Shown here: one piece after another, positions 3,127 to 16,402 of the stretch
How positions within the stretch are numbered: the first letter of the stretch is position 1
How the letters are laid out: each line of letters begins with the position of its first letter
Source of the DNA: a virus
IMG/VR virus record: IMGVR_UViG_3300003322_000089
Span: 1 to 64,000 of that record
Length of the DNA stretch: 64,000 nucleotides
Strand: one strand, 5' to 3'
Program-made: the position numbers and the translations under genes
Notes under the pieces: generated by a model
Databases searched by the model: none
The model's input: the letters and a program-made list of their open reading frames with translations, nothing else
Told to the model about the DNA's origin: nothing

Positions 3127-3537
3127 ATGTATATTTTCGTATATGGGACCCTTATGCAGGGTTATGGGAATTGGAATAGATACCTCAGAGATCGTTCCCA
3201 ACTGATTACCAATGGGACTCTCAGGGGTTATAAGCTTTTTGATAGTGGATTTCCTGTTGCTTCTATCTCCCCTGATGATTGTGTCTATGGTCAAGTCTTC
3301 TTGATTGATGCAGGGAGAGAACCATCAGTTGTGAGAGATTTGGATTTCCTGGAGGGATACCACAAGGATTATCATGATGGCTCTATGTACCATCGTATTC
3401 CTGTGAGTATCTTTGGAGATGACGGAACCCAATATGAATGTGAGACCTACAGGGGTAATCTCAGATTCTGGAACAACTTTGAGGGAATGAGAGATGTATC
3501 AAGGGATGCAGAGAATAGATATCACTGGTCCAGATAG
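3127..3537 (+). CDS. Gamma-glutamyl cyclotransferase (AIG2/GGCT-like) protein
   Basis: N-terminal VYGTLMQGYGN (the YGTL/YGSL hallmark) plus LDFLEGY...YHR, which contains the catalytic-Glu region. Confidence 0.75.
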   Translation: MYIFVYGTLMQGYGNWNRYLRDRSQLITNGTLRGYKLFDSGFPVASISPDDCVYGQVFLIDAGREPSVVRDLDFLEGYHKDYHDGSMYHRIPVSIFGDDGTQYECETYRGNLRFWNNFEGMRDVSRDAENRYHWSR

Positions 3538-3775
3538 TTTTCAGGTTGGGGATATTATTGTAAGTCCATCATATACGAGGACTGTACTAAGAATTAATAC
3601 TGATGATAATGGATTACTCTATTGTTCCGTCATATACAATAACGACAAAAGATCGGTGGGCAATGCGACATATGAGTGGACTAATTTCGACTTTCCGGGT
3701 TACGAATTATACCGTCCTTATGCAGAAGCACCATACGATCCAACCCAAGTAGGGGATACAGAAGATGACATATGA
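3494..3775 (+). CDS. Tail-family small protein 1 (ends EAPYDPTQVGDTEDDI)
   Basis: Listed ORF with the conserved C-terminal peptide. Start is uncertain (ATG 3494 or 3506). FQVGDIIV strand motif near the N-terminus. Confidence 0.7.
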   Translation: MYQGMQRIDITGPDSFQVGDIIVSPSYTRTVLRINTDDNGLLYCSVIYNNDKRSVGNATYEWTNFDFPGYELYRPYAEAPYDPTQVGDTEDDI

Positions 3776-3914
3776 AGACAGATTGGCACAAAGAACCATC
3801 GAAGGGTATATTCAGAACTTCAGTGCCCTCAAGAGGGTGATCAAAGAGAAATCGTCATATAAGCCCAAGGAAGAGCTTTTGGGTAAAAGTGGTATCTCGT
3901 ATCGGATTTCATGA
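3765..3914 (+). CDS. Hypothetical small protein (49 aa)
   Basis: Its ATG is embedded in the upstream tail codons (GATGACATATGA), the same overlap pattern as at 4635, 6511 and 8831. Confidence 0.4.
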   Translation: MTYEDRLAQRTIEGYIQNFSALKRVIKEKSSYKPKEELLGKSGISYRIS

Positions 3915-4108
3915 GAAACGCTCTCAGCGAGCTTCTGTGTGTCAAAGAAGGGTATTATAGATGCTGGTGGGGTGGTCTGATTGGACATAGGGCAATAGGT
4001 GTCAGTTGGATCACCTCACATGAAGTACCTACTTGCAGTACTAAACCTTTTGAACTTGGTACTGCAAGAACATACATCAAGAACATACATCAAGAACTTA
4101 ACTATTAG
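3911..4108 (+). CDS. Hypothetical protein
   Basis: ORF with an ATGA overlap. Its 3' part contains a 10-bp perfect inverted repeat and a 13-nt tandem duplication, so it may be partly regulatory DNA. Confidence 0.4.
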   Translation: MRNALSELLCVKEGYYRCWWGGLIGHRAIGVSWITSHEVPTCSTKPFELGTARTYIKNIHQELNY

Positions 4109-4360
4109 TACTATACTAAAGTACTTAAAAATAAAAAAGAACCTAGAGAATTTACTATTGGAATAACCTATAGAACTGATTCTTGAAGTAATTACTAGAT
4201 GTAGTTACTTACAGTAATATACTTAAAGTATGATATTTTATCAGATTTGATTTCTTTTGTCAATAGGTAAATTCCATTGATCTTAGATTTATTTTTGTGT
4301 CCGATCAAGAGGCGATAGCCTCCTCACCCCCAGTTCCGTCCACCCCCCTAGGTTCCAAAG
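4109..4360 (+). promoter_or_regulatory. AT-rich non-coding spacer with TTCTTGAAGTA box, TTGTCAATAGGTAAAT box and a C-rich tract
   Basis: No ORF. It shares the boxes TTCTTGAAGTA (4180-4190), TTGTCAA-AGG-TAAAT (4257-4272) and a C-run element (4322-4352) with the 61.9-62.9 kb hub. Confidence 0.6.
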
Positions 4361-4645
4361 ATGACGACATTTAGAACAACAGATGTCCTTGTGTACAACG
4401 AGGAGTTCAGTGCAGATATGTTTCAACCAAACTTTGGCGACATCAACGATGAGTACGCACTACGTAGATCAAGAGATGTGACATTTAGTGATCGTTCATA
4501 CGGAGAAGAAGAAGGAGACCTCGTTTATGTCCGTAACTTGAGAACTGGTAACGAAGGGCGCGGGTTCTGGTGGAGACTTAAAGTCGGGTACACAAATACT
4601 CCATACGATCCTACTCAAGCTGGAGATACTGCAGATGACATCTGA
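4361..4645 (+). CDS. Tail-family small protein 2 (ends NTPYDPTQAGDTADDI)
   Basis: Listed ORF with the conserved C-terminal peptide. Confidence 0.75.
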   Translation: MTTFRTTDVLVYNEEFSADMFQPNFGDINDEYALRRSRDVTFSDRSYGEEEGDLVYVRNLRTGNEGRGFWWRLKVGYTNTPYDPTQAGDTADDI

Positions 4646-4850
4646 AAGAATGTCGGATCTAACGAAGTTAGAGATATCTGAGGGTGACACTGTGAGACTA
4701 AAGTTCACCAAGAGAAACAAGATGGGATGGCTCCATAGGCTATACGGTCCTGATCTTGTGGTTGACACTATTGTAGGTTCCTTGGTTTATCTGAGGGGGA
4801 TTCCACAACAACACAATGGGTGGTTACGTGACAGATTCGAGAAAGTTTAA
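4635..4850 (+). CDS. Hypothetical protein (G-D-x-V strand motif, no tail)
   Basis: Its ATG lies inside the upstream tail codons (GATGACATCTGA). An alternative GTG at 4690 sits behind GAGGG. Confidence 0.55.
   Translation: MTSERMSDLTKLEISEGDTVRLKFTKRNKMGWLHRLYGPDLVVDTIVGSLVYLRGIPQQHNGWLRDRFEKV
4655..4674 (+). promoter_or_regulatory. Copy a of the recurrent motif GGATYTAACGRAGTTARAGRGG
   Basis: GGATCTAACGAAGTTAGAGA, 10 nt after the stop of tail gene 2. Confidence 0.5.
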
Positions 4851-5082
4851 ATTTGGAGATCGTGTAGTCTACACTGGTGCATACAGTGAGTTCAATACTC
4901 TAAGTGCCATTGGTGAGACTGGTACAGTAAGTTCTATTAATGGCAATCAAGTGAATGTCGTCTGGGATAATATAAGACGGAATGAACTTTTTGGTTATTG
5001 GGGTGTGTACTCACAGAATATAGAACTTGAGTCTAAACCATACGACCCTACTCAAGCAGGGGATACCGATGATGATATTTAA
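4816..5082 (+). CDS. Tail-family small protein 3 (ends SKPYDPTQAGDTDDDI)
   Basis: Listed ORF with FKFGDRVVY motif and conserved tail. Start is uncertain (ATG 4816 or GTG 4828). Confidence 0.75.
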   Translation: MGGYVTDSRKFKFGDRVVYTGAYSEFNTLSAIGETGTVSSINGNQVNVVWDNIRRNELFGYWGVYSQNIELESKPYDPTQAGDTDDDI

Positions 5083-5159
5083 CTTCACGTAGCTCAACTG
5101 GATAGAGCCTCCGGTTTCTACCCGGATGGTTAGGGGTTCGAATCCCTTCGTGAAGGCCA
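5083..5159 (+). tRNA. tRNA-Arg (anticodon UCU), CCA encoded
   Basis: Hand-folded cloverleaf: acceptor CTTCACG/CGTGAAG, D arm GCTC-AACTGGATA-GAGC, anticodon arm TCCGG-TTTCTAC-CCGGA, T arm AGGGG-TTCGAAT-CCCTT, discriminator G, then CCA. Confidence 0.9.
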
Positions 5160-5160
5160 C

Positions 5161-5235
5161 TTTCCTTTCGTTTAATTGGTAAGACGCTGGTCTTTGGTAC
5201 CAGAAATCCATGTTCGAACCGTGGCGGGAGAGCCA
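5161..5235 (+). tRNA. tRNA-Gln (anticodon UUG), CCA encoded
   Basis: Hand-folded: anticodon arm CTGGT-CTTTGGT-ACCAG, T arm CCATG-TTCGAAC-CGTGG, D arm GTTT-AATTGGTA-AGAC. It has U1-A72 and G73. There is one 7:66 mismatch. Confidence 0.75.
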
Positions 5236-5375
5236 ATATGCATTTAAAAGCTCATAGACCGTTCCTACGTCACTCAGGTATGCTCTAAATCGACCATACA
5301 AGGCTGTACAGAGCGTTTCTAGAGTTTTATGATACTAGACACCAGAAACAAGTGAATGCTTGTCAGCGAGGTTAT

Positions 5376-5636
5376 ATGAAAGAAAATTGGGATTATGTAT
5401 CTTTTGAAAATTACTCGAAGGATATGCAAGAAAGCTCAGACAGGGCTTCAAATATAATCCGACAACAGAGAGGGGAGATTGATAGGTTAAATGAGCTCAT
5501 AGCTGGTTTGGTTTATAGTAATCCCAATCATGAAATCCTAATTCCAACTTCAAATCTCGACATAAACGATCTCAAATTAACTGTAAGTTACGATCCATGT
5601 GAAATGAGATACATCTACAAGGCAAATAGGAGATAA
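5376..5636 (+). CDS. Hypothetical protein
   Basis: ORF; ATG 5376 behind AGCGAGG is preferred over the listed GTG 5352. Confidence 0.55.
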   Translation: MKENWDYVSFENYSKDMQESSDRASNIIRQQRGEIDRLNELIAGLVYSNPNHEILIPTSNLDINDLKLTVSYDPCEMRYIYKANRR

Positions 5637-5637
5637 C

Positions 5638-6300
5638 ATGCCTGTAATTCATTCTAGCGTAAGTACTGTATGCACTGCAACTCATCTGACCAACTGGTCC
5701 CTTCCAGGATTTGATAGTGATGATGAGAAAGTCTTGGTGAATGCCAAGCTCAATGAGGTAGACCATCTGATGAAGGCAGGGTTCAAGAGGGACTTTGCCA
5801 TGATGGAAGTTATCGTCACAGAAACTCAGAGATCAAAGTACAAGCTGGATGAGTTCCTTCCGAAGATCGGATTTGAATTCACTCGTACATTCCCCAAGAG
5901 TGACGCAAAGAGCACTCAGCGTCACCAGGAAACAGGTGATCTTCACCTTTGGACCACCACTCCCAAGATCTATGAGAAAGCTCTAAAGGACTACCACAAG
6001 GAACTGACAGAACTCAAGGAGCGTATCGATCCTCCCAAGAAGCCTGATCCCAAGCGTCAGAAGTTCCCTGATCTCCTCTTGAGTGCCCTTCGTAAGGCAG
6101 AGATGGTTCAGAACAATACCTCTGTTAACAACCCCATCCATCAGGTTCTCACTGTCTCTGATGATGTACTCTATCGTCATCTCAAGATGAAGTACGGTAT
6201 TGATATCAAGAAGTGGAATAACCTTGGTGATGCATGGACCAAGATCACCATCCGTCAGTTGAAGCAGTATCAGATGGACTGGAAGGCTGAACTCGTATGA
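5638..6300 (+). CDS. Hypothetical protein (220 aa)
   Basis: Long ORF with plausible composition. No motif recognised. Confidence 0.65.
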   Translation: MPVIHSSVSTVCTATHLTNWSLPGFDSDDEKVLVNAKLNEVDHLMKAGFKRDFAMMEVIVTETQRSKYKLDEFLPKIGFEFTRTFPKSDAKSTQRHQETGDLHLWTTTPKIYEKALKDYHKELTELKERIDPPKKPDPKRQKFPDLLLSALRKAEMVQNNTSVNNPIHQVLTVSDDVLYRHLKMKYGIDIKKWNNLGDAWTKITIRQLKQYQMDWKAELV

Positions 6301-6521
6301 GGACCTATCCTTGTTATCTCCGTTCCAAAGAAAGCGGCAACCTCTACTTCTTTGAAGGGAGAGGTTATGAATGTACTTTTATTGAAACTTCAAGGAATCA
6401 TTCTCAATACCGCTCAGGTCAAAAGGTTGTTATTGGGTACACATCTGAGGATAAGTTCCTGTGGACAGAGGAATCTCCATATGATCCAACCCAAGTAGGG
6501 GACACAGAAGATGACATCTAG
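6297..6521 (+). CDS. Tail-family small protein 4 (ends ESPYDPTQVGDTEDDI)
   Basis: ATGA overlap with the upstream stop. Conserved tail. Confidence 0.75.
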   Translation: MRTYPCYLRSKESGNLYFFEGRGYECTFIETSRNHSQYRSGQKVVIGYTSEDKFLWTEESPYDPTQVGDTEDDI

Positions 6522-7131
6522 TAACAAGGGTAAGGTCTATGTCGTAGGTACAGACAGGAATGTCACCAGTATGTTCTTCGAGAGGGGCTATATGATCACC
6601 CATAGACAGTCAGATGCTGACATTCTTTGTTTCATTGGTGGTGCTGATATTGACCCCAATTTCTATGGACAAAAGAAGAACCCTGTCTTGAATATTAATA
6701 CATCACCCACTTGTGATGCCAGAGATAGTCAGGCTTGGAAACAGAAGACCTCTAATCAATTGTCTGTAGGTATTTGCAGGGGTGGACAATTCCTTTCGAG
6801 TATGTCCGGTGGGAGTATGATCCAGCATGTTGTAGGTCATATGGGAGTCCATAAGGTCTATGATACTGTCTGGAACACAGAGGTACAAGTTGCCTCTTGT
6901 CATCATCAAATGATGGTTCCTGGTCCAGATGCAGAAATCTTTGCCTATACCGAGGATCATGCAAAAGAGGCTTGGGACGATCAAGGAAAGATTGAAGTAC
7001 CCAAGGTAGAACCAGAGGTTATCTGGTACGACAAGACCAAGTGCCTGTGTTATCAAGGTCATCCTGAGTGGAACCCTCAGACAGGTACAGACTATTTCTT
7101 CAATCTCCTTGAGTTGGTTAAGGATTGTTAG
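6511..7131 (+). CDS. Class I glutamine amidotransferase-like / peptidase C26 (gamma-glutamyl hydrolase-type) protein
   Basis: GGADIDPNFYG, nucleophile elbow GICRGGQF, HHQ and GHPEW, in the typical C26/PuuD-like order. Its ATG is embedded in the upstream tail codons. Confidence 0.7.
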   Translation: MTSSNKGKVYVVGTDRNVTSMFFERGYMITHRQSDADILCFIGGADIDPNFYGQKKNPVLNINTSPTCDARDSQAWKQKTSNQLSVGICRGGQFLSSMSGGSMIQHVVGHMGVHKVYDTVWNTEVQVASCHHQMMVPGPDAEIFAYTEDHAKEAWDDQGKIEVPKVEPEVIWYDKTKCLCYQGHPEWNPQTGTDYFFNLLELVKDC

Positions 7132-7133
7132 AT

Positions 7134-7382
7134 ATGAAGTGGAATGTAGGTGAAGAGGTTGAAGTTGTAACCAAGAGGCATGGTGGAAGCCAATTCGGTC
7201 TGATTGGTACTGTAATGAAGAATGACGGCTCTAATTATGGGTCCGGACTAGATCATATAGTGGACTTTGGTGAGATGATCAGGGGTTGCCTAAGAATAAA
7301 TTACTATTCGTACTCCGATCTCCAAACTACTGAGAAACCATATGACCCTACTCAGGTAGGGGATACTGATGACGATATCTGA
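7134..7382 (+). CDS. Tail-family small protein 5 (ends EKPYDPTQVGDTDDDI)
   Basis: MKWNVGEEVEVV start at ATG 7134 (the listed ORF begins at TTG 7125). Conserved tail. Confidence 0.75.
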   Translation: MKWNVGEEVEVVTKRHGGSQFGLIGTVMKNDGSNYGSGLDHIVDFGEMIRGCLRINYYSYSDLQTTEKPYDPTQVGDTDDDI

Positions 7383-7389
7383 TCGTCTT

Positions 7390-7420: not shown

Positions 7421-8542
7421 TTGTGTGGACATCTAGGAATGATGGGTCCAGGTATTCAACGAGAAGACCTTGCGATCATTAAACAATTGGGTATTGTCTC
7501 TCAGCTAAGGGGACTTGATGGTTCTGGTATCTACCAGACAAGAACTACAAAGTACAATGCCTACTCTCCAAACTACGATCTCCTGTTCAAGACATACAGT
7601 CCATTCTCTAGCATTCTTGATGAGTCGTCTGGACATAATGGGAAGTACAAAGAACTCTTGAACTCTGTGATGGTCGATGTTGTCATTGGTCACGTAAGGG
7701 CTAGTACTCAGGGTGTAATCTCCGATCAGAATGCTCATCCTTTTGAGTTCGATAACATCGTAGGTGCTCACAATGGTACTCTTAAGGATGCTCAGTACCT
7801 CTCTCATCCAGTGAAGACAGATTCTGAATTAATGTTCAAGGATATCAGCAAGAGGGGTATTACTCCTGTTGTAGAAGCTCTGGATAGAGACTCTGCCTTT
7901 GCCATCGTTATGTACGATAAGATAGACAAGCATGTTTATTTTGTCCGGAACGAACTTAGGACACTGTGTTTTGCCTTCATCAAGGACAGAGCAGTCATGT
8001 ATTGGGCGTCTGAACTGGTCATGCTTGAGTATATCCTGAAGAGAAATCACCAGGATTATAGGATTTTCTCTCTTCATGAGAATTATCTTATCAAAATCAA
8101 CCCCAATGATATAACTCTAAACAATAATAAAAAAGAAGATCCTCTTGACATTCTGAAAGTCCATAAGAAACTCGTGCGTCCACTTCCCACCTCATACCAA
8201 AAAGCTAAGGATGAGATGGAACGCAGGAAGAAACTGGAGAAAGAGAAAGAAACCAAGAGTAACTGGACCCCTGATCAGTACTCCTTCGAGTTGAATAAGA
8301 CAAAGGATAAAGGAGGTAAAGTACTCCAAGGAAATTTTCCACAGACCAAAATCAAGAGCAAACCATTCTCAGTGAAGAGTTGCTATACTCGTTGTGCCTG
8401 TGGCAAAACTACTTTGAATTTGTTGGAAACCAATCAGACCCATCGGGGAATTCATCCTAGGTATCGTTACGATAAGTCAGAGAAAAAGATCTATTGTGAT
8501 GTATGTCCAGACAACAAGATCGAGTGCAAAGAGGTGGTATGA
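7421..8542 (+). CDS. Class II (Ntn) glutamine amidotransferase-domain protein with a long C-terminal extension and Cys-rich end
   Basis: TTG 7421 is followed directly by Cys (CGHLGMMG), as required for an Ntn nucleophile. GHVRASTQG and NAHPF motifs. C-terminal CxC...CxxC. Confidence 0.7.
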   Translation: MCGHLGMMGPGIQREDLAIIKQLGIVSQLRGLDGSGIYQTRTTKYNAYSPNYDLLFKTYSPFSSILDESSGHNGKYKELLNSVMVDVVIGHVRASTQGVISDQNAHPFEFDNIVGAHNGTLKDAQYLSHPVKTDSELMFKDISKRGITPVVEALDRDSAFAIVMYDKIDKHVYFVRNELRTLCFAFIKDRAVMYWASELVMLEYILKRNHQDYRIFSLHENYLIKINPNDITLNNNKKEDPLDILKVHKKLVRPLPTSYQKAKDEMERRKKLEKEKETKSNWTPDQYSFELNKTKDKGGKVLQGNFPQTKIKSKPFSVKSCYTRCACGKTTLNLLETNQTHRGIHPRYRYDKSEKKIYCDVCPDNKIECKEVV

Positions 8543-8841
8543 TGAAAAATCCTGCAAGTACGGAGAGGTTGGTTTTTAATGTCGGTGACGAAGTTGAATT
8601 TGTGGGGCGGGTGGGTGATCTCGGCTCTCAGTTTGAGGGTTCTGTTGGGACTATAATTAACCCCTCTGATCCAGCTTGGAAATCTCATTTAGTGTGTTGT
8701 GTTAGATTTCATTCTGGTTCATTAGCTGGAAGAGTATCTACTGGACGACAAGGAGGGTACTGTGTGTATTCAAGACACCTAGCACTAGCATCTAAACCCT
8801 ATGATCCAACCCAAGCTGGAGACCAAGACGATGACATTTAA
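8539..8841 (+). CDS. Tail-family small protein 6 (ends SKPYDPTQAGDQDDDI)
   Basis: ATG 8539 overlaps the upstream TGA, with GAGGTGG upstream. FNVGDEVEFVG motif. Confidence 0.75.
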   Translation: MMKNPASTERLVFNVGDEVEFVGRVGDLGSQFEGSVGTIINPSDPAWKSHLVCCVRFHSGSLAGRVSTGRQGGYCVYSRHLALASKPYDPTQAGDQDDDI

Positions 8842-9079
8842 TGTAGGTGATCGTATAGAGTATTTTAGAGGGAACTCCTTAGCCAATGAGAGGTTCTTTG
8901 GGCTAACTGGGACTATCGTGGGAAAAATGTCGTACGGAATGGTGGCCATCCGGTGGGATCACTATTGTCTAGAAAATATGTATGCAGATACGAGATGTGT
9001 CTGGTCAGTCCATAATATAAAACCACTTATGAACGATTATGATCCTACTCAGGTAGGTGATACTGAGGATGATATCTAA
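8831..9079 (+). CDS. Tail-family small protein 7 (ends NDYDPTQVGDTEDDI)
   Basis: MTFNVGDRIEYF start at an ATG embedded in the upstream tail codons (GATGACATTTAA). Confidence 0.75.
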   Translation: MTFNVGDRIEYFRGNSLANERFFGLTGTIVGKMSYGMVAIRWDHYCLENMYADTRCVWSVHNIKPLMNDYDPTQVGDTEDDI

Positions 9080-9796
9080 ATGACGACAATTAAAATTGGA
9101 TGTGACCCAGAGTCATTCATTGTAGATGGCAAGGGTGATTTTATTCCAGCCATTGGTATTATTCCTGGAGATAAGGAAAATCCATACCCTGTGGATGGTG
9201 GTGCAGTTCAAGTCGATGGATTGGCAGTAGAGTTTAATATTCACCCTGCCGAGACGGCAGATCAGTTTGTTGGGAATATCAAGAAGGTTCTCTACCAGAT
9301 TGATGAGATGATACACTCCTTTGATAAGGACTTTTCCATCAGGCATACACCGGTAGCTACATTCCGTCAGACCATCTGGAATATGGCACCAGAACAAAGC
9401 AAGATCCTCGGGTGCGACCCAGATTATAATGTCAAGGGGGATATCAACGAGAACCCTACAATGAGACTGGAAAATAGTACCATCCGTACTGCTGCCGGTC
9501 ATATCCACATTGGTTGGCTTGATGAACTCCTTGAAGACCCAATGCAGGGAGATCATTTTGAGACGTGCTTGGACATTGCCAATGGTTTCTTCCACGGTCA
9601 TCTATCCACCTTCATTCCTAGTACACAGGAAGAAGAAGAGCGGATGAAATACTACGGTCACAATGGTTCTTTCCGTCCCAAGAAGTATGGTATTGAACTC
9701 CGTGCACCAAGCAACCTTTGGGTTAGAACCGAAGAAACTCAGAAGCTTATCTTCAATCAGACAAGGAAGAAGTTCCATGAGCTTACAGGACTATAG
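9080..9796 (+). CDS. COOH-NH2 ligase, glutamine-synthetase/GCS fold (phage 'type 2' amidoligase-like)
   Basis: N-terminal GCDPESF...G..QVDG.AVEFNI.P pattern plus HIHIG. From memory this matches the phage phiEco32-like COOH-NH2 ligase type 2 family. Not verified. Confidence 0.55.
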   Translation: MTTIKIGCDPESFIVDGKGDFIPAIGIIPGDKENPYPVDGGAVQVDGLAVEFNIHPAETADQFVGNIKKVLYQIDEMIHSFDKDFSIRHTPVATFRQTIWNMAPEQSKILGCDPDYNVKGDINENPTMRLENSTIRTAAGHIHIGWLDELLEDPMQGDHFETCLDIANGFFHGHLSTFIPSTQEEEERMKYYGHNGSFRPKKYGIELRAPSNLWVRTEETQKLIFNQTRKKFHELTGL

Positions 9797-9807: not shown

Positions 9808-10089
9808 ATGTTACCGGCCTTTAAAGTTGGTGATGAAGTTGAGTACAGACACCCACATATGGAAGTAAAAGATTTGGATGGTTCTTTTGGATATATAGTG
9901 GCTGTATTTCCCAGAAGATTTCAGGACCCACCTGAAGAAGTTCATCATTATCATGTTAATTGGGAATCTGGTCCTGCTGTATTTCAAAAAATATATACTA
10001 GTAACACTCGATGGGGAGAGCCTGTACTACATCTGTCAAGTAATACATATGATCCCACTCAAATGGGTGATACTGATGAAGACATCTGA
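9808..10089 (+). CDS. Tail-family small protein 8 (ends NTYDPTQMGDTDEDI)
   Basis: FKVGDEVEY motif and conserved tail. Confidence 0.75.
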   Translation: MLPAFKVGDEVEYRHPHMEVKDLDGSFGYIVAVFPRRFQDPPEEVHHYHVNWESGPAVFQKIYTSNTRWGEPVLHLSSNTYDPTQMGDTDEDI

Positions 10090-10110: not shown

Positions 10111-10731
10111 ATGAAACAACGTTGGAAAGGTGATGATGTTAAGGCTCGTCTCCATGGGACCATCATCAGATATAAGAGCCATCCGTACCTCTGTGGAGTA
10201 GACGGACATAGCATTAATCTAATCGATCTCCAGACTGGTAGTACAGTTGGTACTGTGGACAGTGACGATGATCTCCTTGATGTATCTAGTGTACCTCTTG
10301 GCTATGTGAATATTGTCCACCCTGATTACAAACTTTGTGTTTATCTCAAGCGTGACCCTCTTCGTAGGTTCAAGCAGGGTGTAGAAGTAGATATCCTCAC
10401 TCAGAAGATCCTAAGGGATGGTTGGAGTCCTATCAGCAGGGATATTATTCGTTCCAAGTCTCTTGTTGACACAATTCTTGGACGGTTCCCTTCATACAAG
10501 GAGGCTCTGGATTTCATTACGAAGAAGGGTTTCCATTCTGTGGCTTTGAGTAGAGACATTGCTCTTAAACGGGAGGGTGAACTCCTTAAAGTATATCTCA
10601 AAGAGTCTGAAGTTGGGTACATTCGACTTGGTACTGACAGGGTGATTGTCCCCAAGACAGACCAGAGCTACTATCACATTCTACTTCTAGAAGATCTCCA
10701 TGGTTGGGAAGTAATCGAGGGTTCAAAATGA
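10111..10731 (+). CDS. Hypothetical protein (206 aa)
   Basis: ORF with GAGGG upstream. No motif recognised. Confidence 0.65.
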   Translation: MKQRWKGDDVKARLHGTIIRYKSHPYLCGVDGHSINLIDLQTGSTVGTVDSDDDLLDVSSVPLGYVNIVHPDYKLCVYLKRDPLRRFKQGVEVDILTQKILRDGWSPISRDIIRSKSLVDTILGRFPSYKEALDFITKKGFHSVALSRDIALKREGELLKVYLKESEVGYIRLGTDRVIVPKTDQSYYHILLLEDLHGWEVIEGSK

Positions 10732-11042: not shown

Positions 11043-11309
11043 ATGATTGAAGTTGGTGATTATGTAGAATACTGCTTTGAGGGGTATGGGAACGAGCGTT
11101 ATCATGGAAGTATAGGAAGAGTTCTAGAAGTTAGAAATTACTACGGATACAGTGAATACCAATGTGCAGTATTTTGGGAAAGTGGTCTACTTTCTGAACA
11201 CGAAAGTTATAAAACCCCAAGACTATTCTGGGACAGAACCATCAAGAAGGCCTGCGTTAATAGAGATTACGACCCCACACAGATGGGTGACACTGAGGAC
11301 GACATTTAA
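11043..11309 (+). CDS. Tail-family small protein 10 (ends RDYDPTQMGDTEDDI)
   Basis: IEVGDYVEY motif and conserved tail. Confidence 0.75.
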   Translation: MIEVGDYVEYCFEGYGNERYHGSIGRVLEVRNYYGYSEYQCAVFWESGLLSEHESYKTPRLFWDRTIKKACVNRDYDPTQMGDTEDDI

Positions 11310-11318: not shown

Positions 11319-12347
11319 ATGAATCAGATTGTAAATGTTTATGATATTCTAAAGGCTCAGACCAAGTTCTCTGGTGATCGTCATCATGGTGAATTTGGTG
11401 TGGAGATCGAGACTGAGACAGAGAAGTCTTATGAATACCCCAAGATGAAATTCTGGAACACAACCAAGGATAATTCCTTGCGTGATTGGGGTGTGGAATA
11501 TGTTCTCAAGGCTCCCATGAACCTTCCTGAATTTGAGAAAGCTCTTGAAGAATTCTCCATTTGTGAGAAGAAATACAAGTTTAGGAATGGATCTATCTCT
11601 ACCAGTGTCCATGTCCATATTAATTTTCAGAATGATACCTTCTTGACATTGGCAAACTTCTGTACTGCCTATGCATTGGTAGAGAATCTTCTGATCAAAT
11701 ACTCTGGACCAGACCGGTTGAGTAATCTTTTCTGTCTTCCGATGTGTGATGCAGAGGGTGTTGTCTCCAATATTGTTAACCTATTGTCATTTGTCAACAG
11801 GAATATGTATGCCAAGGTTCCTGGATCAGTGTCAGTAGACAGGTGTAAGTATGGTGCACTCAATCCAGCACCTATTACCACACTAGGAACTCTCGAAGTT
11901 AGATGTTTCAGGGGTGAGACAGACTCCAAAATCATCCAACGATGGGTAGAAATCATCAAGAAACTGAAGGATTTTTCTCGTAGGGAGGGCTTGACACCAC
12001 CAGATATCCTCAAACTCTGGAAGGAAAACAAGGCTACCATCGTCGATATCATCTTCCAAGAGTATGCAAGTGACCTTAAGTATAAGGAAACTGATGAACT
12101 GATTCGTAAGAATTTGAAGTATGCAGCAGATATTGCTTGTGTTTCCAAGACTTGGGATAAATTCGGTATCCTTAAGATCAAACCTGTCTATAAGGAAGTG
12201 GCTAAGGACAAGTTGGACAGGATCTCCAATGATATGTTCCAGAGGCTCTACGATTCCCTCAACTACCATGAGCGTATTGCAGTGGCAGAGAAGTATCAAG
12301 CAATGAACCCTACAACAAGAATCGTGGATCTAAATGACGATATCTAG
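11319..12347 (+). CDS. Putative amidoligase (Amidoligase_2-like, GS fold); ends in VDLNDDI
   Basis: GEFGVEIETE and STSVHVHI motifs, typical of the 'putative amidoligase enzyme' family (from memory). The acidic C-terminus resembles the tail. Confidence 0.6.
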   Translation: MNQIVNVYDILKAQTKFSGDRHHGEFGVEIETETEKSYEYPKMKFWNTTKDNSLRDWGVEYVLKAPMNLPEFEKALEEFSICEKKYKFRNGSISTSVHVHINFQNDTFLTLANFCTAYALVENLLIKYSGPDRLSNLFCLPMCDAEGVVSNIVNLLSFVNRNMYAKVPGSVSVDRCKYGALNPAPITTLGTLEVRCFRGETDSKIIQRWVEIIKKLKDFSRREGLTPPDILKLWKENKATIVDIIFQEYASDLKYKETDELIRKNLKYAADIACVSKTWDKFGILKIKPVYKEVAKDKLDRISNDMFQRLYDSLNYHERIAVAEKYQAMNPTTRIVDLNDDI

Positions 12348-12354
12348 TATCGTT

Positions 12355-12374: not shown

Positions 12375-12385
12375 ATGATATCTAA

Positions 12386-13186
12386 ATGACAATTACAGCA
12401 ATCTTTGCTTATGCAAACTACTCTGAAGGTGCTAATGAGCTAAAGACAGCTCTTGGTGTCCCTAAGATCAAGCACACAGGTTCCAAGTTTAAAGCAGCTC
12501 CCACCAAAACTATTCTTAACTGGGGGGCTACGACAGATAGGTTCCCTGAAGAATACAATAGATGCAATGTCATCAATAAGCCTCAGAATGTCGATCTTGC
12601 AGTAGATAAGAAGAAGGCATTCCGTAAATTCAGAGAACATGGAGTATCTATTCCTGAGTTCACAGAGGACAAGGAAACTGCTACCCAATGGCTTGAAGCA
12701 GGGCAGATGGTCTTTGCTCGTACTAGACTCCATGATCATAGCGGTCGCGGTATCGTCATCATGGACCCTGAATTTCCTGATACTTGGGAAGTAACGGCAG
12801 AACTGTTCGTCAAATACGTTCCCAAGAAAGATGAATACCGCATCCATGTTCTCAATGGACAGATCATCGACATTCAGCGTAAGGGTCTTCGTGCAGAGTT
12901 GAGAGGTTCTGAGGGTATCAACTATAAGATCAGAAATCTTTCTAACGGTTTCATCTATGTCCGTAACGATAGTAATGAGACCCCCCTGATCTCTTCTGCA
13001 TCAGTCCCTCAGATTGTCAAGGATGTGGGTATTGCAGGTGTTCAGGCACTGGGTCTTGACTTTGGTGCTGCCGATGTAATCTACAATGAGAAATCTCGTA
13101 GAGCATATATCCTTGAGGTCAACAGCGCGCCGGGCCTAAGTGGCTCTACTGTAACCAACTATGCAGAGGCATTTGGACGGCTATGA
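12386..13186 (+). CDS. ATP-grasp ligase (RimK-like)
   Basis: Size and motif layout of RimK-type ATP-grasp enzymes: FARTRLHDHSGRGIV, KYVPKKDEYRIHV and ILEVNSAPGL. Confidence 0.7.
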   Translation: MTITAIFAYANYSEGANELKTALGVPKIKHTGSKFKAAPTKTILNWGATTDRFPEEYNRCNVINKPQNVDLAVDKKKAFRKFREHGVSIPEFTEDKETATQWLEAGQMVFARTRLHDHSGRGIVIMDPEFPDTWEVTAELFVKYVPKKDEYRIHVLNGQIIDIQRKGLRAELRGSEGINYKIRNLSNGFIYVRNDSNETPLISSASVPQIVKDVGIAGVQALGLDFGAADVIYNEKSRRAYILEVNSAPGLSGSTVTNYAEAFGRL

Positions 13187-13458: not shown

Positions 13459-13475
13459 TTAAGGAATTAATAACA

Positions 13476-14615
13476 GTGTGTGTGATTCTCCATCTATCTG
13501 CTGGTGCTACTATCAACAAGCGTCAACTCTATAACGCTGTACATAACAATTGGCATGGCTTTGGTCTAGTTCTTAAGGACCAGAATAATCGTATCCAACT
13601 CACCAAGGGCTTCAGGGAAAACGGTACTGACCCTGAAGAGATCTGGAAGCTTCTGGAAGATAACAAAGATATCGAACGGTATCTTCATGTCCGTCATTCC
13701 ACTCGTGGTGCACCAGATGATACCAACGTTCAGCCCTTTGAAGTTTACAATTCCAATGAACGTCAGATCTTCTTCATGCACAATGGCACCCTATCCTCAT
13801 TTGGAGGGGCGTGGAACAACGATCAGGGAAAGAGTGATACACTAGAGTTCTGCGAGAAGATTCTCTCCCCCGCCCTTCTACGTTGGTCTGGTGCCAATGG
13901 TAAAGCTGACTATACCGATGAAGAATTCTTTCGTCTGGTAATGGAAAAGCAGTGGTCATCTGGCTCCACTGGTCTGTTCGTTTCCAACGATCTTGAACCC
14001 AGACGTATTGGTGCTGGATGGTCAGAATACAAACACCCAGATGACACCAGTAGTGGTACTGTCTGGACTTCCAATACTTCCTATTTCGATAGGGTTCAGC
14101 GTGGGCCTGAATTTCAAAGGTTGGAAGCAATCAAGAAAGCAGAGGAAGAGAAGAAAAAGGAGGAGATGAACTCCTTAGTCCCTTTCGACCAGACGAATGC
14201 GAAAACCAGATCGAGTATTATGCAAGAATGGGGTGGGGGTCCGAATGGGCATACTACAACTACTGAAGTCCTGAAGTTTAATGCCAGCAATCTTGCCAAG
14301 TCTCCAAAAGTCCTTAAGGCTCTCTCTGATATTGTTAACACTTGGGACTTTGAAAATCCTGAAGACCTCCAGAAGCTCCGTTTTGTTGCATATGATGAAT
14401 GGATCAACTTCATTGACAGTGAAGGAGAGTGGGCTGTAGCTGCATTCATTGAGCATCTTACTCACCATTATCATGACATGTTCTTCAAGAATCTTGCTCT
14501 TATCGAGATGGTAAAGAAAGCAGAAACAAAGCAGAGGAAGGCAGAACAGCATATTTCCAACCTAAAGCAAATCACTTTGGAAAAGAATCCTGTAGGTAAA
14601 AATGAAGCTGCGTAG
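13476..14615 (+). CDS. Class II (Ntn) glutamine amidotransferase-domain protein, second copy
   Basis: GTG start followed directly by Cys (MCVILH). HVRHSTRG, NVQPF and HNG motifs. The C-terminal half is K/E-rich. Confidence 0.7.
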   Translation: MCVILHLSAGATINKRQLYNAVHNNWHGFGLVLKDQNNRIQLTKGFRENGTDPEEIWKLLEDNKDIERYLHVRHSTRGAPDDTNVQPFEVYNSNERQIFFMHNGTLSSFGGAWNNDQGKSDTLEFCEKILSPALLRWSGANGKADYTDEEFFRLVMEKQWSSGSTGLFVSNDLEPRRIGAGWSEYKHPDDTSSGTVWTSNTSYFDRVQRGPEFQRLEAIKKAEEEKKKEEMNSLVPFDQTNAKTRSSIMQEWGGGPNGHTTTTEVLKFNASNLAKSPKVLKALSDIVNTWDFENPEDLQKLRFVAYDEWINFIDSEGEWAVAAFIEHLTHHYHDMFFKNLALIEMVKKAETKQRKAEQHISNLKQITLEKNPVGKNEAA

Positions 14616-15201
14616 TGCAAGAAACTCGTATGATATCATCGGTACATCTGCCAAGAATACTCCAGACTGGATGGACCTAAAGAAATCTGCATATGATGAA
14701 TTCCTTGTCTTTGTAGTTGGTAACACTCGTAGGTATAGATCCAGGTCTGCCCTTATGGAGGGTGCCAACTATTATGGTGAGGGTGTAACATTCGATGATA
14801 ATTATATTATGAAGAGATCAATGACAGCGGCTGGAAATAAAAACCCGGAACCACTGTTGTTCACATTTGATAAGGTTAAGAATTGGAATGATTTTAAACC
14901 CATCTTCCGTAGAGAACATTTAAAGCATATCGAAGGTGATGTATACGGTATCCCACTCCGAAAGCTTGCTCAACTCGATCAATATGAAGGTAATGGAGAT
15001 TTCATCACCAGAATTTCCAGATGGGTAAAACTCCTTCATCCCAAACAAGAAGGTACTACTGTTAAAGCATGGATGTGGGTAGTGGACACTGATGCTTGGA
15101 TGGAATGTTATTCGGGTGGAAATGAACTCAATCTTTGTAACACTATTAATCATATGGTAGGTCCAGAAAAGGAGTCCTTCAATGCCTACTACTTTGCATA
15201 A
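14602..15201 (+). CDS. GGCT/AIG2-like protein, divergent second copy
   Basis: LVFVVGNTRR replaces YGTL. VYGIPL...LDQYEGNGDFITR matches the catalytic-Glu segment seen in 3127..3537. Confidence 0.5.
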   Translation: MKLRSARNSYDIIGTSAKNTPDWMDLKKSAYDEFLVFVVGNTRRYRSRSALMEGANYYGEGVTFDDNYIMKRSMTAAGNKNPEPLLFTFDKVKNWNDFKPIFRREHLKHIEGDVYGIPLRKLAQLDQYEGNGDFITRISRWVKLLHPKQEGTTVKAWMWVVDTDAWMECYSGGNELNLCNTINHMVGPEKESFNAYYFA

Positions 15202-15496
15202 ATATGACGGTGATGATTACGAATATGTAAGCACCAAAGATATTCTTGTTGGTGATATTGTTATTCACAAATCTTGGTTAGCAAATGCAGGGTCTAAGAT
15301 AACGTATGAGATTGTCTATAATAATCCACAAGAAGAGAGGATCTACGGTATTGATCCTAGATGGGATAGCAGATCAAGAAACTCTGACTATAGATGGAAT
15401 TACAGTAGTAACTTCGGATACACTGGGTGGCTACGTAAAGTAACTGAGTATCCTTACGACCCAACACAAATGGGAGATCAAGAAGATGATATTTAA
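15182..15496 (+). CDS. Tail-family small protein 12 (ends EYPYDPTQMGDQEDDI)
   Basis: ILVGDIVIH motif and conserved tail. Confidence 0.75.
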   Translation: MPTTLHKYDGDDYEYVSTKDILVGDIVIHKSWLANAGSKITYEIVYNNPQEERIYGIDPRWDSRSRNSDYRWNYSSNFGYTGWLRKVTEYPYDPTQMGDQEDDI

Positions 15497-15806
15497 AGAT
15501 CTGGTACTTTCTGAATTTAAATCTTGGGATGAGATCCTTCTTGGAGATAAACTTGTCTGGTGTAGAGATGGTAAAGTTTTGTATGATTACTTAGTGTCTT
15601 TTGAAAGATTAACAGACTATGAGATGTTTGGTTCTAATGAAATAGGAGACCCAGACGATGATGATGACTATGATAGTGAAGGAGACGGATGGAGTAGAGA
15701 CATTTATCCGACAAAAAGTTATTCCATGATTTGTGGTTGGATGAAGGTGGTGGAAGAAGTTCCATATGATCCCACACAAATGGGAGATCAAGAAGATGAT
15801 ATTTAA
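15486..15806 (+). CDS. Tail-family small protein 13 (ends EVPYDPTQMGDQEDDI)
   Basis: Its ATG is embedded in the upstream tail codons (GATGATATTTAA). Conserved tail. Internal poly-Asp stretch. Confidence 0.75.
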   Translation: MIFKDLVLSEFKSWDEILLGDKLVWCRDGKVLYDYLVSFERLTDYEMFGSNEIGDPDDDDDYDSEGDGWSRDIYPTKSYSMICGWMKVVEEVPYDPTQMGDQEDDI

Positions 15807-16122
15807 TCTAGGTGATGTAGTAGAGTATACCAATAAGAAGTATAAGGCAGATATGATTGGGTATATCATTGCCTATGAGGGTTCCTATGTTTGTGTAGAG
15901 ACTCTCAGTGGTGATAGTGGGTGTACACAAGAAAAGTCTTGGTTCTGGAAGAATGAACAGAGTGATTATCTTTCTGACAGATTTGAGCAACTGGGTTTTG
16001 CAAGTGGGTATACTTCGAAGAGTGATAAATGCCAATGGATTCCTAAGAGGTCTCGTAACCTCAAGCAAGCAATAAGAGAATACGATCCTACACAAGCAGG
16101 GGATACCGATGAGGACATTTAA
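15796..16122 (+). CDS. Tail-family small protein 14 (ends REYDPTQAGDTDEDI)
   Basis: MIFNLGDVVEY start at an ATG embedded in the upstream tail codons (the listed ORF begins at 15766). Confidence 0.75.
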   Translation: MIFNLGDVVEYTNKKYKADMIGYIIAYEGSYVCVETLSGDSGCTQEKSWFWKNEQSDYLSDRFEQLGFASGYTSKSDKCQWIPKRSRNLKQAIREYDPTQAGDTDEDI

Positions 16123-16402
16123 GATCATCGACTATTTTGCTAACTTGTTCTATGGAAAGATATATAAAAAGAAATTTAATATTGGAGACCGAGTTAGATA
16201 CAAGCCAACAAAAGCATTCTGGCAAAACCTTACTATCATAAAGTATGACTTCTGTTATAATGGTAAATGGTGGATTGTAGCCGAAGATACGGATGACCCA
16301 AGTTATAGAAAGATACCTGTTGAGGAACACAGTCTGGAACTTGTCTGTGTAGAACATCCTTATGATCCCACTCAGATGGGTGATACAGATGAAGACATTT
16401 AA
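16109..16402 (+). CDS. Tail-family small protein 15 (ends EHPYDPTQMGDTDEDI)
   Basis: Its ATG lies inside the upstream tail codons (GATGAGGACATTTAA). FNIGDRVRY motif. Confidence 0.75.
   Translation: MRTFKIIDYFANLFYGKIYKKKFNIGDRVRYKPTKAFWQNLTIIKYDFCYNGKWWIVAEDTDDPSYRKIPVEEHSLELVCVEHPYDPTQMGDTDEDI

Follow-up and report, generated by a model that had tools for sequence, protein, structure and literature searches.

The phage studied here is a phiM6-like podovirus with a complete genome record of 67,409 bp (67.4 kb), and the stretch analysed (hereafter, the window) covers its first 64,000 nucleotides. Fifteen genes on the + strand (window positions 3494-16402) encode proteins of 74-108 aa with a common acidic C-terminal peptide (hereafter, the tail), and they are interleaved, often with overlaps, with a set of enzyme genes (Table 1). 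The region belongs to the early/middle arm, with primase/helicase and DNA polymerase genes directly downstream and the structural module on the opposite strand. Five downstream start codons, that of the C26 hydrolase among them, lie inside tail codons, and 10 of the 15 tails contain none. The starts of five tail ORFs are ambiguous (7125/7134, 8503/8539, 8801/8831, 10704/10728 and 15766/15796).

Table 1 Genes and features of the tail-gene region, in window coordinates.
Feature	Position	Strand	Evidence and remarks
GGCT/GGACT-like enzyme 1	3127..3537	+	PF06094 E=1e-17; phrog_2520; 3' end overlaps tail gene 1
Tail protein 1, 93 aa, ending PYDPTQVGDTEDDI	3494..3775	+	hhalign to SH3 cluster 42%
Tail protein 2, 94 aa	4361..4645	+	hhalign to SH3 cluster 94%
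Tail protein 3, 88 aa, SH3-like	4816..5082	+	SH3_12 match, weak
Clade-specific conserved 220-aa protein among tail genes	5638..6300	+	orthologues in all clade genomes
Tail protein 4, 74 aa	6297..6521	+	its tail codons contain the C26 start codon
Peptidase C26 / GATase-1-like gamma-glutamyl hydrolase	6511..7131	+	PF07722 E=1e-11; phrog_7218 E=8e-39
Tail protein 5, 82 aa, SH3-like	7134..7382	+	hhalign 95%
Ntn GAT-II protein a	7421..8542	+	PF13522 E=1e-10; phrog_4736 E=4e-46; basic Cys-rich C-terminal region
Tail protein 6, 100 aa, SH3-like	8539..8841	+	
Tail protein 7, 82 aa, SH3-like	8831..9079	+	modelled with AF2; start codon within tail of protein 6
phiEco32-type COOH-NH2 ligase, GS-like fold	9080..9796	+	phrog_3815 E=1e-56; PF14395 weak, 16 bits
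Tail protein 8, 93 aa, SH3-like	9808..10089	+	
Conserved cassette protein	10111..10731	+	phrog_11055 E=1e-16; phmmer to PA11 gp006 8e-9
Tail protein 9, 87 aa	10728..10991	+	no fold assignable to body
Tail protein 10, 88 aa, SH3-like	11043..11309	+	
Amidoligase_2, GS-like	11319..12347	+	PF12224 E=5e-8; phrog_7469 E=3e-48; C-terminus ...VDLNDDI
RimK-like (R2K) ATP-grasp ligase	12386..13186	+	phrog_2599 E=2e-71; PF18299 weak; PF08443 on homologues
Tail protein 11, 91 aa	13183..13458	+	no fold assignable to body
Ntn GAT-II protein b, begins Met-Cys	13476..14615	+	PF13230 weak, 23.3 bits vs cutoff 23; orthologues in clade
GGCT/GGACT-like enzyme 2, N-terminal extension	14602..15201	+	PF06094 E=3e-7
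Tail protein 12, 104 aa	15182..15496	+	hhalign 41%
Tail protein 13, 106 aa	15486..15806	+	body very acidic, net charge -14; start codon within tail of protein 12
Tail protein 14, 108 aa, SH3-like	15796..16122	+	start codon within tail of protein 13
Tail protein 15, 97 aa, SH3-like	16109..16402	+	hhalign 94%; terminator-like hairpin at 16403-16415 directly 3'

The enzyme set is the podovirus amidoligase cassette, already described for phiEco32, PA11, RIO-1, LUZ24 and phiM6. All eight enzyme assignments of the preliminary description held in Pfam and PHROG searches, with the second GAT-II protein weakly matched. The families and their order upstream of the primase/helicase gene are those of the phiEco32, PA11, RIO-1, LUZ24, CW02 and phiM6 podoviruses: C26, GAT-II, COOH-NH2 ligase, the phrog_11055 protein, Amidoligase_2 and the RimK-like ATP-grasp, with GGCT in some. 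The phrog_11055 protein sits between the two GS-like ligases, the same placement as PA11 gp006. The tail-bearing clade differs in adding 11-16 tail proteins, a second GAT-II protein (protein b), two GGCT proteins and the 220-aa protein. The last of these matched no Pfam or PHROG family; its N-terminal half is weakly GNAT-like (Atlas TM 0.34-0.45 to GNATs), its C-terminal half is helical and carrier-protein-like, and VIA matches to the protein have Z 5-6. For GAT-II protein a another start is possible at 7388; the start at 7421 gives Met-Cys.

The cassette, also present in CW02, is otherwise named the 'peptidoglycan modification' cassette and was described by Iyer et al. 2009 and Hardies et al. 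2013, according to PMC6256558 and PMC5498523; the module is also named in the announcement of phiM6. The preliminary description had referred to phiEco32-like neighbourhoods of ligase, GAT-II and GGCT families. The published descriptions available to us propose cell-wall modification and mention no substrate or tail family.

All 15 tail ORFs end in [P/D/E/T]YDPTQ[AVM]GD[TQ][ADE][DE]DI-stop, the conserved acidic peptide being the last 13 residues, with 9 of the 13 positions invariant among the window copies. Their coordinates were confirmed as first listed. When all 637 window ORFs of at least 40 aa were clustered blind by their final 12 residues, a single cluster emerged, made up of exactly these 15. 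A degenerate DNA pattern for YDPTQxGD had 15 forward matches in the 67,409-bp record, and there were no reverse matches and none with a reversed-pattern control. Codons differed in 55% of the same-residue codon pairs across tails, and mean tail identity was 84% at the amino-acid level versus 75% at the nucleotide level. Selection thus acts strongly on the peptide and not on the DNA, in line with the preliminary description: the peptide stays invariant although its synonymous sites are scrambled.

The bodies preceding the tails (hereafter, heads) are strongly diverged, in agreement with the preliminary description. Once the tails were removed, only two BLAST links at E<1e-3 remained between window proteins; heads have orthologues across genomes and almost no links within a genome. 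The AF2 model of tail protein 7 (pLDDT 76.7) had a KOW domain as its best VIA-align match (Z 9.1, rmsd 1.4 A, 57 residues), and the top matches were all SH3-like barrels. The majority of heads are SH3/KOW/Tudor-like barrels, and the earlier guess of an SH3/Tudor-like fold is supported.

A profile search for the tail family gave 1017 matches, and 68 of the 150 best cluster representatives were proteins of 74-117 aa with the tail exactly C-terminal. Contigs that carry the tail, from viruses or metagenomes, measure 65.9-70.6 kb, apart from one of 129.6 kb, and the tail is also present in MAG bins. The peptide reads Y-D-P-x-Q-x-G-D-x-acid-acid-D-I-COOH; across 193 distinct tails of the family, conservation is 100% for Y, Q, D(-6) and D(-2), 98% for G and 95% for the terminal I. 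The family is limited to the phiM6-like clade, with 11-16 copies per genome; phiM6 itself has 13 copies of a diverged tail (Y-x-x-D-Q-E-P-x-E-D-E-E-x-L) in a block upstream of the enzymes, not interleaved with them. At variable tail positions, identity was 0.625 within genomes versus 0.421 between them, a difference reached by 0 of 2000 permutations, and thus each genome has its own concerted tail flavour.

The tail is portable across heads: in addition to SH3-like proteins it occurs on a DUF7448 head (E=2e-23) and on host histidyl-tRNA synthetase (HisRS) alleles of several Rhizobium lineages, where its codon usage looks foreign. In some Rhizobium the peptide has thus been grafted onto the cell's own HisRS. 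Neither the tail family nor the host's capture of it appears to have been described so far.

Two other explanations were considered. The tail could lack a function of its own, as a relic of tandem duplication, a product of homogenisation by gene conversion, or DNA retained for translational coupling. The genes are in tandem, the five nested starts would suit coupling, and one pair of tails has an identical stretch of 33 nt. Against this stand the scrambled synonymous sites, heads diverged past BLAST detection while tails are not, the occurrence on unrelated folds and a host gene, and the majority of tails without a nested start, which together make this extremely improbable. A very improbable role is that of a degron or timing signal by which a host or phage protease would clear early proteins jointly. 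The conservation of a peptide at the extreme C-terminus, its hydrophobic final residue and the hydrolases of the cassette would be in keeping with it, but the intact tail is carried by an essential HisRS in several Rhizobium lineages, and a constitutive degron read by the host would be hard to tolerate. To our knowledge, the tail sequence is also unlike known bacterial C-terminal degrons.

The preliminary description had also named a capsid-targeting signal. The tail would act in the manner of encapsulin cargo-loading peptides or of the capsid-targeting sequence of T4, so that the small proteins are loaded into the HK97-fold head and injected with the DNA. One conserved terminal peptide on many unrelated cargos agrees with this, as does the HK97-type major head protein of the phage (phrog_267), and a signal-bearing host decoy would make sense. 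However, the tail genes lie among enzymes on the strand opposite the structural module, the proteins as a whole are acidic (net charge of the tail -5, of the bodies -14 to +3), unlike known DNA-associated internal proteins, and the tail-like end of Amidoligase_2 is left unexplained. We therefore consider capsid targeting improbable.

The Amidoligase_2 encoded in the window ends in DLNDDI, resembling both the tail and a truncated tip of single-stranded DNA-binding protein (SSB). The C-termini of all clade orthologues consist of an acidic or small residue (D/E/G/N) followed by D/E/G, D and finally I/L/V. Of 120 Amidoligase_2 clusters in the PA11-like lineage, 97 close with an acidic stretch and a hydrophobic residue after it, IDEVPF, DDEEPF and VDAEPF being frequent; EPLED[YF] is another of these endings, and EPLED is found in phiM6 tails too. 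The host Rhizobium SSB ends in ...DLDDDIPF. An SSB-like protein of the phage (window 22581-23186) carries DLNDDIPF, and the endings of this protein and its orthologues follow DLND[DE]IP[FW]. The tail closes with DDDI, the same four residues that open the host SSB tip DDDIPF, and tail and tip are alike in being acidic runs with a hydrophobic last residue whose carboxylate is free.

This likeness points to a replisome-type hub instead of the cassette, and the common docking peptide for one hub, raised earlier as an alternative, has at least as much support as the tagging proposal. The tail would bind non-covalently to a pocket that reads SSB-type tips, in the phage DNA polymerase or helicase or in host SSB-interacting proteins, and the SH3-like heads and Amidoligase_2 would be recruited to, or compete at, a replication hub. 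The acidic tails of T7 gp2.5 and gp4 offer a parallel for a polymerase or helicase pocket. The SSB-type endings of Amidoligase_2 in both lineages and the replication genes directly downstream favour this reading, but the Pro-Phe/Pro-Trp anchor of SSB is absent from all tails, and nothing in SSB tips corresponds to the invariant Y-D-P-x-Q-x-G-D half. Moreover, host HisRS with a constitutive SSB-tip competitor attached should be a burden to the cell, yet it is tolerated. On balance we regard replisome docking as rather unlikely.

The tail is probably a handle by which the proteins dock to a single shared partner. It would attach many diversified heads to one common, co-evolving receptor. Because each genome has a flavour of its own and the host puts up with a tailed essential enzyme, this receptor is most likely phage-encoded. 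The leading candidate would be the cassette, through its RimK-like ATP-grasp and two GS-like ligases; its C26, GAT-II and GGCT hydrolases may serve as erasers. The heads could be acceptors of C-terminal or side-chain modification, as S6 is for RimK and tubulin (-EEY) for TTL, or adaptors that take the enzymes to different targets. That the partner is a cassette enzyme is possible but doubtful, and covalent modification of the tail is unlikely; the complete reading, of a portable handle with a co-evolving, probably phage-encoded receptor and the cassette as leading candidate, is tentative and falls somewhat short of even confidence.

Tail genes lie inside or adjoining the cassette in all genomes seen, and all tail-bearing contigs with enough flank carry it. 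The tail-bearing genomes are all in one clade, and therefore co-occurrence and synteny amount to a single evolutionary event and carry no statistical association. The preliminary description stated that frequent occurrence of tails without the enzymes, or the reverse, would refute it, and the reverse case is observed, as the enzyme set commonly occurs without the tail family: the COOH-NH2 ligase is found in 319 phage records versus matches to a tail protein in only 3 (RHph) plus phiM6 with its diverged tail, and no shared C-terminal cluster was found in PA11, LUZ24, RIO-1 or ES17. The block arrangement in phiM6, where tail genes are not interleaved with the enzymes, also counts against the cassette as partner. 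With the cassette so widespread without the tail family, its conserved job is therefore independent of the tail proteins. The proposed handle or acceptor of a writer/eraser system is partly supported: the anatomy, the cassette linkage and the tail-like Amidoligase_2 end agree with it, and the many cassettes without tails do not.

Chemical precedents for tail-directed ligation are RimK/S6, TTL/tubulin, LysX/LysW and PafA/Pup. ATP-grasp ligases act on the acidic C-termini of ribosomal protein S6 (RimK; ...DSEE), tubulin (TTL and TTLL; ...GEEY) and the LysW carrier (LysX; ...EDWGE), and the phage likewise encodes a RimK-superfamily ATP-grasp beside small acidic-tailed proteins. The acid-acid-aromatic encoded end of tubulin is similar to the phage -DDI and the Amidoligase_2 -EDY/-EDF ends. 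However, there are 15 different phage proteins versus one substrate or carrier, and the phage ATP-grasp is placed at superfamily level. RimK, LysX and PafA use Glu as the terminal residue, whereas the phage tails end invariantly in Ile or Leu, which counts against an acceptor role; a hydrophobic C-terminus that never varies is more in keeping with docking in a pocket.

Pup is disordered, ends in GGQ or GGE, and has PafA and Dop as partners. Comparably, the phage has GS-like carboxylate-amine ligases and amidohydrolases adjoining small proteins whose conserved C-terminal motif includes an invariant Gln. The phage proteins, however, are folded barrels with the Gln nine residues from the end, and the phage has neither PafA or Dop orthologues nor a proteasome. 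A constant C-terminal motif on many paralogues is also known from the poxvirus ankyrin/PRANC F-box-like proteins, and encapsulin cargos carry loading peptides. These systems have no motif, partner or host in common with the phage, but they share with the tail proteins a design in which variable binding heads are all directed to a single partner by one constant C-terminal peptide.

Fifteen + strand ORFs of the window (3494-16402) end in one acidic 13-residue peptide, YDPTQ[AVM]GD[TQ][ADE][DE]DI-stop (hereafter, the tail), and the preliminary description was right about every one of them. The degenerate DNA pattern of the tail had 15 forward matches in the virus record, and none in reverse or in a reversed-pattern control. 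When the last 12 residues of 637 window ORFs were clustered blindly, the single sizeable cluster comprised exactly the same 15 ORFs. The tail has a charge of -4 to -5. Nine of its 13 positions are invariant, yet 55% of same-residue codon pairs differ, which indicates selection on the peptide and agrees with the earlier claim that the peptide rather than the DNA is conserved. A DNA-level repeat or recent gene conversion as the cause of the common tail was ruled out by this codon scrambling, except for one recently duplicated pair. The invariant Gln is a CAA codon in 11 of the 15 copies. In five cases (6511, 8831, 15486, 15796 and 16109) the start codon of the next gene is nested in the tail codons with an overlap of 11-14 nt; shifting the reading of GAT GAx ATT TAA forward by one base yields M-[IT]-F or M-R-T-F N-termini, and one of these starts is that of the C26 gene. 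The nested starts suggest translational coupling and head-to-tail duplication at the tail.

To find further members, a family profile of 25 members was searched against 1.8 billion cluster representatives (E<1e-3), and 1017 proteins were matched. Among the best 150 of these 1017, 68 are 74-117-aa proteins with the tail at the extreme C-terminus, and the rest are long multi-repeat SH3_15 or SH3_12 proteins matched through the barrel only. The tail DNA pattern was detected in IMG/VR, GTDB genomes and JGI metagenomes. The contigs that bear it are 65.9-70.6 kb long, apart from one of 129.6 kb and from fragments of such contigs, and each complete genome has 11-16 copies. Four residues, Y(-13), Q(-9), D(-6) and D(-2), never vary among 193 distinct tails, G(-7) and P(-11) are kept in 98% and 92%, and the terminal residue is I (95%), V (3%) or L (2%). 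Phage phiM6 has 13 copies of a different yet alignable tail, Y-x-x-D-Q-E-P-x-E-D-E-E-x-L, and some of its tail-protein bodies (the protein without the tail) cluster with those of the window. In the RHph and phiM6 records, all annotations of the family read 'hypothetical protein'. In RHph_N3_13 (MN988507.1), at least one tail-bearing ORF, at ~15840-16113 and ending ...YKYDPNQQGDTEDDI, lies in an annotation gap between the ligase gene and EVB79_035.

The flavour of the tail is genome-specific. The residue after Q is A, M or V in the window, M in one UViG, Q in three others and E in phiM6, and the identity at variable positions is 0.625 within genomes vs 0.421 between them, a difference reached by 0 of 2000 label permutations. 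The bodies are orthologous across genomes and have hardly any detectable paralogue links within a genome, so the tails change in concert. Such concerted change would be expected if every copy tracks one partner, and we consider it probable that the tail has one shared receptor.

The bodies themselves are strongly diverged. Once the tails were removed, six window proteins fell into one BLAST cluster of 101 family members, and profile-profile comparison (hhalign) added three to this SH3-like cluster at 94-95% probability; of the other six, two reached ~40%, one 17% and three were not detectable. The AF2 model of the 8831-9079 protein (pLDDT 76.7) is a five-stranded barrel with the last 13 residues outside the fold. 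Its best match in VIA is a KOW domain (DSIF KOW6-7; Z 9.1, rmsd 1.4 A over 57 residues), and all of its top structural matches are SH3-like barrels (KOW, Tudor, PsaE, NdhS, the Mind-bomb repeat and Xrn1 SH3); Foldseek gave TM values of 0.5-0.6 with a weak E of ~5e-3. The SH3/Tudor-like barrel guessed earlier from a strand motif is thus correct for most of the family. No family was above threshold for the tail proteins in PHROGs and Pfam scans, including SH3_12 and SH3_15 at their gathering thresholds (SH3_12 reached 19.3 and 18.6 bits, the cutoff being 26.2); the long multi-repeat proteins matched by the family profile do exceed both the SH3_15 and SH3_12 thresholds. The tail is not tied to one fold, since in a related phage (IMGVR_UViG_3300027809_000006) a 163-aa tail-bearing protein (L033:2382-2873) has a DUF7448 body (E=2e-23) that is not SH3-like. 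An intramolecular role, with the acidic tail autoinhibiting a basic nucleic-acid-binding barrel, was ruled out because the bodies, with net charges of -14 to +3 (family mean -0.1), are not basic and because the tail occurs on unrelated bodies. The arrangement also differs from RiPP precursor families, where a short precursor combines a recognition sequence with a modified variable core and is served by tailoring enzymes. Here the likeness fails, since the tail proteins vary in a folded domain of 60-90 aa and are constant at their extreme C-terminus.

The virus record is 67,409 bp long with direct terminal repeats and is rated 100% complete in IMG/VR, the window being its first 64,000 bases. 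Its left arm (+ strand) has the early genes, the tail-gene region, primase/helicase, DNA polymerase and nucleotide metabolism, and its right arm (- strand) the terminase, portal, HK97-type head protein and phage tail genes. DNA polymerase identity places Rhizobium phages RHph_N3_13 and RHph_I3_11 (80%) nearest among cultured relatives, ahead of RHph_N3_19 (65.5%), Sinorhizobium phage phiM6 (63%) and PA11-like Pseudomonas phages (~50%). When the region was compared with phages by megablast, there were just three short matches, all to Rhizobium phages. The tail could also be read as a capsid-targeting or cargo-loading peptide; the position of the tail genes and the acidity of the tail proteins argue against it.

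All eight enzymes that the preliminary description had called among the tail genes hold, the second GAT-II only at the Pfam threshold. The COOH-NH2 ligase is of phiEco32 type (phrog_3815, E=1e-56), with phmmer matches, together with Amidoligase_2, to PA11 gp005/gp007 at 1e-47 and 3e-37, and Amidoligase_2 matches PF12224 (E=5e-8). These enzymes, the RimK-like ATP-grasp at 12386, GAT-II and the C26/GGCT hydrolases form one co-directional block upstream of the primase/helicase, and the gene order is the same in phiM6, RHph_N3_13 and PA11. The block is a member of the podovirus amidoligase cassette (phiEco32 / PA11 / RIO-1 type), and the cassette as such is already known. The phiM6 genome announcement describes a seven-ORF peptide-bond-synthesis segment common to PA11 and RIO-1 and cites a proposal of peptidoglycan modification by the cassette (PMC6256558), and the same cassette is found in phiEco32, 7-11, PA11, tf, LUZ24, PaP3 and CW02 (PMC5498523). 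The COOH-NH2 ligase was present in 319 phage records. The core common to PA11 consists of C26, GAT-II, COOH-NH2 ligase, a phrog_11055 protein, Amidoligase_2 and ATP-grasp; in the phiM6-like clade (the window virus, the RHph phages, phiM6 and related UViGs) it is joined by two GGCT enzymes, a second GAT-II and a 220-aa protein (5638-6300). This clade-specific protein lies among the tail genes and has no sequence family match. The N-terminal half has a weak likeness to the half of GNAT enzymes that binds acetyl-CoA, and the C-terminal half is like a four-helix acyl/peptidyl carrier protein, both with middling matches (Z 5-6).

The proposed co-occurrence of the tail and the enzymes held in one direction. 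The cassette was found on every tail-bearing contig with enough flank, but it often occurs without the tail family. No family of shared C-termini was found in PA11, LUZ24, RIO-1 or kuravirus ES17, which weakens the idea of a dedicated substrate family by the standard proposed with it, namely that tail and enzymes should not commonly occur apart. A tail protein search of 50,697 records matched only the three RHph phages. All tail-bearing genomes belong to one clade, so the association of tail and cassette represents one evolutionary event.

A second connection comes from Amidoligase_2 itself. Its tail-like endings in the clade (...VDLNDDI, VDLTEDV, VSINEDL, VDADGDI, VDAQGDL and VYSEEDI) have D and then I, L or V as the last two residues. 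For PA11-like Amidoligase_2, 101 of 120 cluster representatives (P0392-P0511) have a hydrophobic residue at the end, and 97 of the 120 additionally have at least two acidic residues in the last eight. Recurrent endings are EPLEDY, EPLEDF, IDEVPF, DDEEPF and VDAEPF; phiM6 tails have the identical EPLED string (D-Q-E-P-L-E-D-E-E-x-L). The cassette thus has an intrinsic acidic, hydrophobic-ended peptide in at least two lineages, and a peptide of this kind appears to be in use in the SH3 family as well. Co-folding of the ATP-grasp with the 8831-9079 tail protein scored 0.19 vs a mark of 0.32, neither for nor against binding. A C-terminal acceptor of the RimK-S6 or TTL-tubulin type would have an acidic tail and a co-encoded ATP-grasp that adds residues to it; the window encodes an acidic tail and an ATP-grasp. 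The acceptor in RimK-S6, LysX-LysW and PafA-Pup is a C-terminal Glu (or Gln converted to Glu), whereas the tails end in I, V or L. A cassette enzyme as the receptor is a tentative assignment, which we place below even chances, and covalent modification of the tail seems unlikely.

Host and phage SSBs offer another comparison. The Rhizobium host-type SSB ends ...DLDDDIPF, the window tails end DDDI and the window Amidoligase_2 ends DLNDDI; the latter two look like SSB tips cut before the Pro-Phe anchor, and PA11-like Amidoligase_2 ends like complete tips. This resemblance to host and phage SSB tips supports a competing reading, with a replisome-type hub as the receptor. Simple SSB mimicry fits less well, as the full tip, D-D-D-I-P-F with its Pro-Phe/Pro-Trp anchor, is found on the host SSB and the phage SSB-like protein whereas the tails stop at DDDI, and they have an extra invariant half, Y-D-P-x-Q-x-G-D. 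The 201-aa window protein at 22581-23186, in the position of the putative SSB of PA11/RIO-1, has no PHROG match and ends ...EDLNDDIPFGDKVKDSLPW, a double SSB-tip-like motif. This protein and its orthologues end DLND[DE]IP[FW], and the orthologue ends include LNDDIPW and DLDDKIPF.

The tail also occurs in host histidyl-tRNA synthetase (HisRS, gene hisS). A strict scan of 185,579 species genomes with the tail pattern matched two chromosomal genes only, both hisS, in Rhizobium binxianense BJ04 and Rhizobium sp. L43, with the ends ...AEDRKRA[SG]SGFET[SP]YDPAQAGDTDDDI; a looser pattern matched in 1 of 401 Rhizobiaceae. Mimicry of a widespread host motif is not supported by these counts. The host alleles have a C-terminal extension of ~17 residues that ends in the phage tail (e.g., ...SGFETSYDPAQAGDTDDDI). 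HisRS in 29 other Rhizobiaceae stops ~17 residues earlier, including one protein that is 97% identical to that of BJ04 over the compared C-terminal region. The hisS flanks are syntenic and the difference is a short 3'-end patch (<250 bp) including a ~51-nt in-frame insertion, which rules out a prophage or island at hisS as the source. The codon usage of the extensions looks foreign, and their GC3 points to a low-GC, phage-like origin.

Tail-bearing hisS genes, GC3 of the HisRS extensions, and the Amidoligase_2 C-terminal peptide (L, retrieved loci; P, retrieved proteins)
Feature	Location	Property	Equal-length core windows as low
Tail-bearing hisS, R. binxianense BJ04	L068:6179-7750; chromosome G001:C1 ~486.2-487.75 kb		
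Further tail-bearing hisS	L065 (Rhizobium sp. L43); L108:11522-13261; L119:6770-8380; proteins P0272-P0295		
First HisRS extension		GC3 0.33 vs gene core 0.82	0/487
Second HisRS extension		GC3 0.44 vs gene core 0.82	0/487
Third HisRS extension		GC3 0.24 vs gene core 0.63	0/445
Fourth HisRS extension		GC3 0.55 vs gene core 0.71	37/396
Amidoligase_2 C-terminal peptide	window 12320-12347; also L042:4535-5482	acidic, hydrophobic last residue	

In a protein search, the extension was present in ~30 HisRS clusters, whose sources are R. leguminosarum, CIAT894, S9, PEPV16, CNPSo 3490, R. halophilum, R. metallidurans and metagenomes. Intact extensions (YDP[AT]QAGDTDDD[IV], YDPNQVGDTEEDI) occur beside decayed ones (GDTDENA, GDPSDGI, QQPYDDADI), and most Rhizobium HisRS lack the extension, including those of other R. 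leguminosarum strains. The nearest of 221 phage tail DNAs to the BJ04 extension is in the window (33 of 39 bases). We read the extension as a phage handle captured by the host, with strain-level polymorphism. Its capture by HisRS suggests that the tail is an autonomous module and that uninfected cells suffer little from it; the latter point speaks for a receptor encoded by the phage and against a degron read by the host. On HisRS, the tail may act as an integrated decoy or tripwire against these phages, or may have no effect.

To our knowledge, hundreds of podoviruses with the amidoligase cassette have been recorded over more than 15 years, with neither a substrate nor a function known for it. 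The tail family, whose only common feature is the 13-residue handle, is embedded in the cassette and mirrors the C-terminus of Amidoligase_2, and it is the first concrete and testable candidate for the feature that the cassette, or some other single hub, recognises. We found no mention in the literature of the tail family, the tail-like Amidoligase_2 ends or the HisRS capture. One speculative scheme, improbable as a whole in our judgement, would make the cassette a phage writer/eraser of protein tails. Its writers would be the ATP-grasp and the GS-like ligases, working on C-terminal peptides that are acidic and end in a hydrophobic residue, and its erasers would be the C26, GAT-II and GGCT enzymes. 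The 11-16 SH3-like heads of phiM6-like phages, with their cognate handle, would be adaptors or acceptors for different host targets. Grafted onto HisRS by Rhizobium strains in defence, the handle would be a decoy or else a tripwire, with translation stalling once the phage enzymes act on it. In a variant of this scheme, the true target class would be SSB-type tips, capped by the cassette enzymes. A modified tail would mean a new phage protein-tagging system, and if docking is its only role, the tail would be a clear example, from a bacterial virus, of an adaptor family that relies on one short linear motif. The handle is short and portable, and thus convenient for peptide pull-downs, mass spectrometry and tail swaps. 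The strain-variable HisRS suggests a new host counter-measure, an integrated decoy on a housekeeping enzyme, and its alleles offer a genetic test in tractable systems (RHph phages/Rhizobium and phiM6/S. meliloti).

Several further features were observed. Metagenome contig Ga0058695_1000002 (129,572 bp; loci L111, L114, L115, L120, L123, L132, L134, L135 and L137) has at least 26 tail matches; its length and tail copy number are about twice those usual for a genome, and it could be a larger relative or a ~65-kb phage in concatemeric form. In the window, sigma-70 promoter sites were fewer than in shuffled controls and terminators modestly above them. Genes for tRNA-Arg(TCT) and tRNA-Gln(TTG) lie inside the cluster at 5083-5159 and 5161-5235, directly 3' of the third tail gene. 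Between tail genes 1 and 2, a stretch of ~585 bp (3776-4360) has no ORF of more than 73 codons, and a short frame ending ...GSKDDDI-stop at 4374 overlaps the start of the next gene; this stretch may be a decayed tail gene or a regulatory region.
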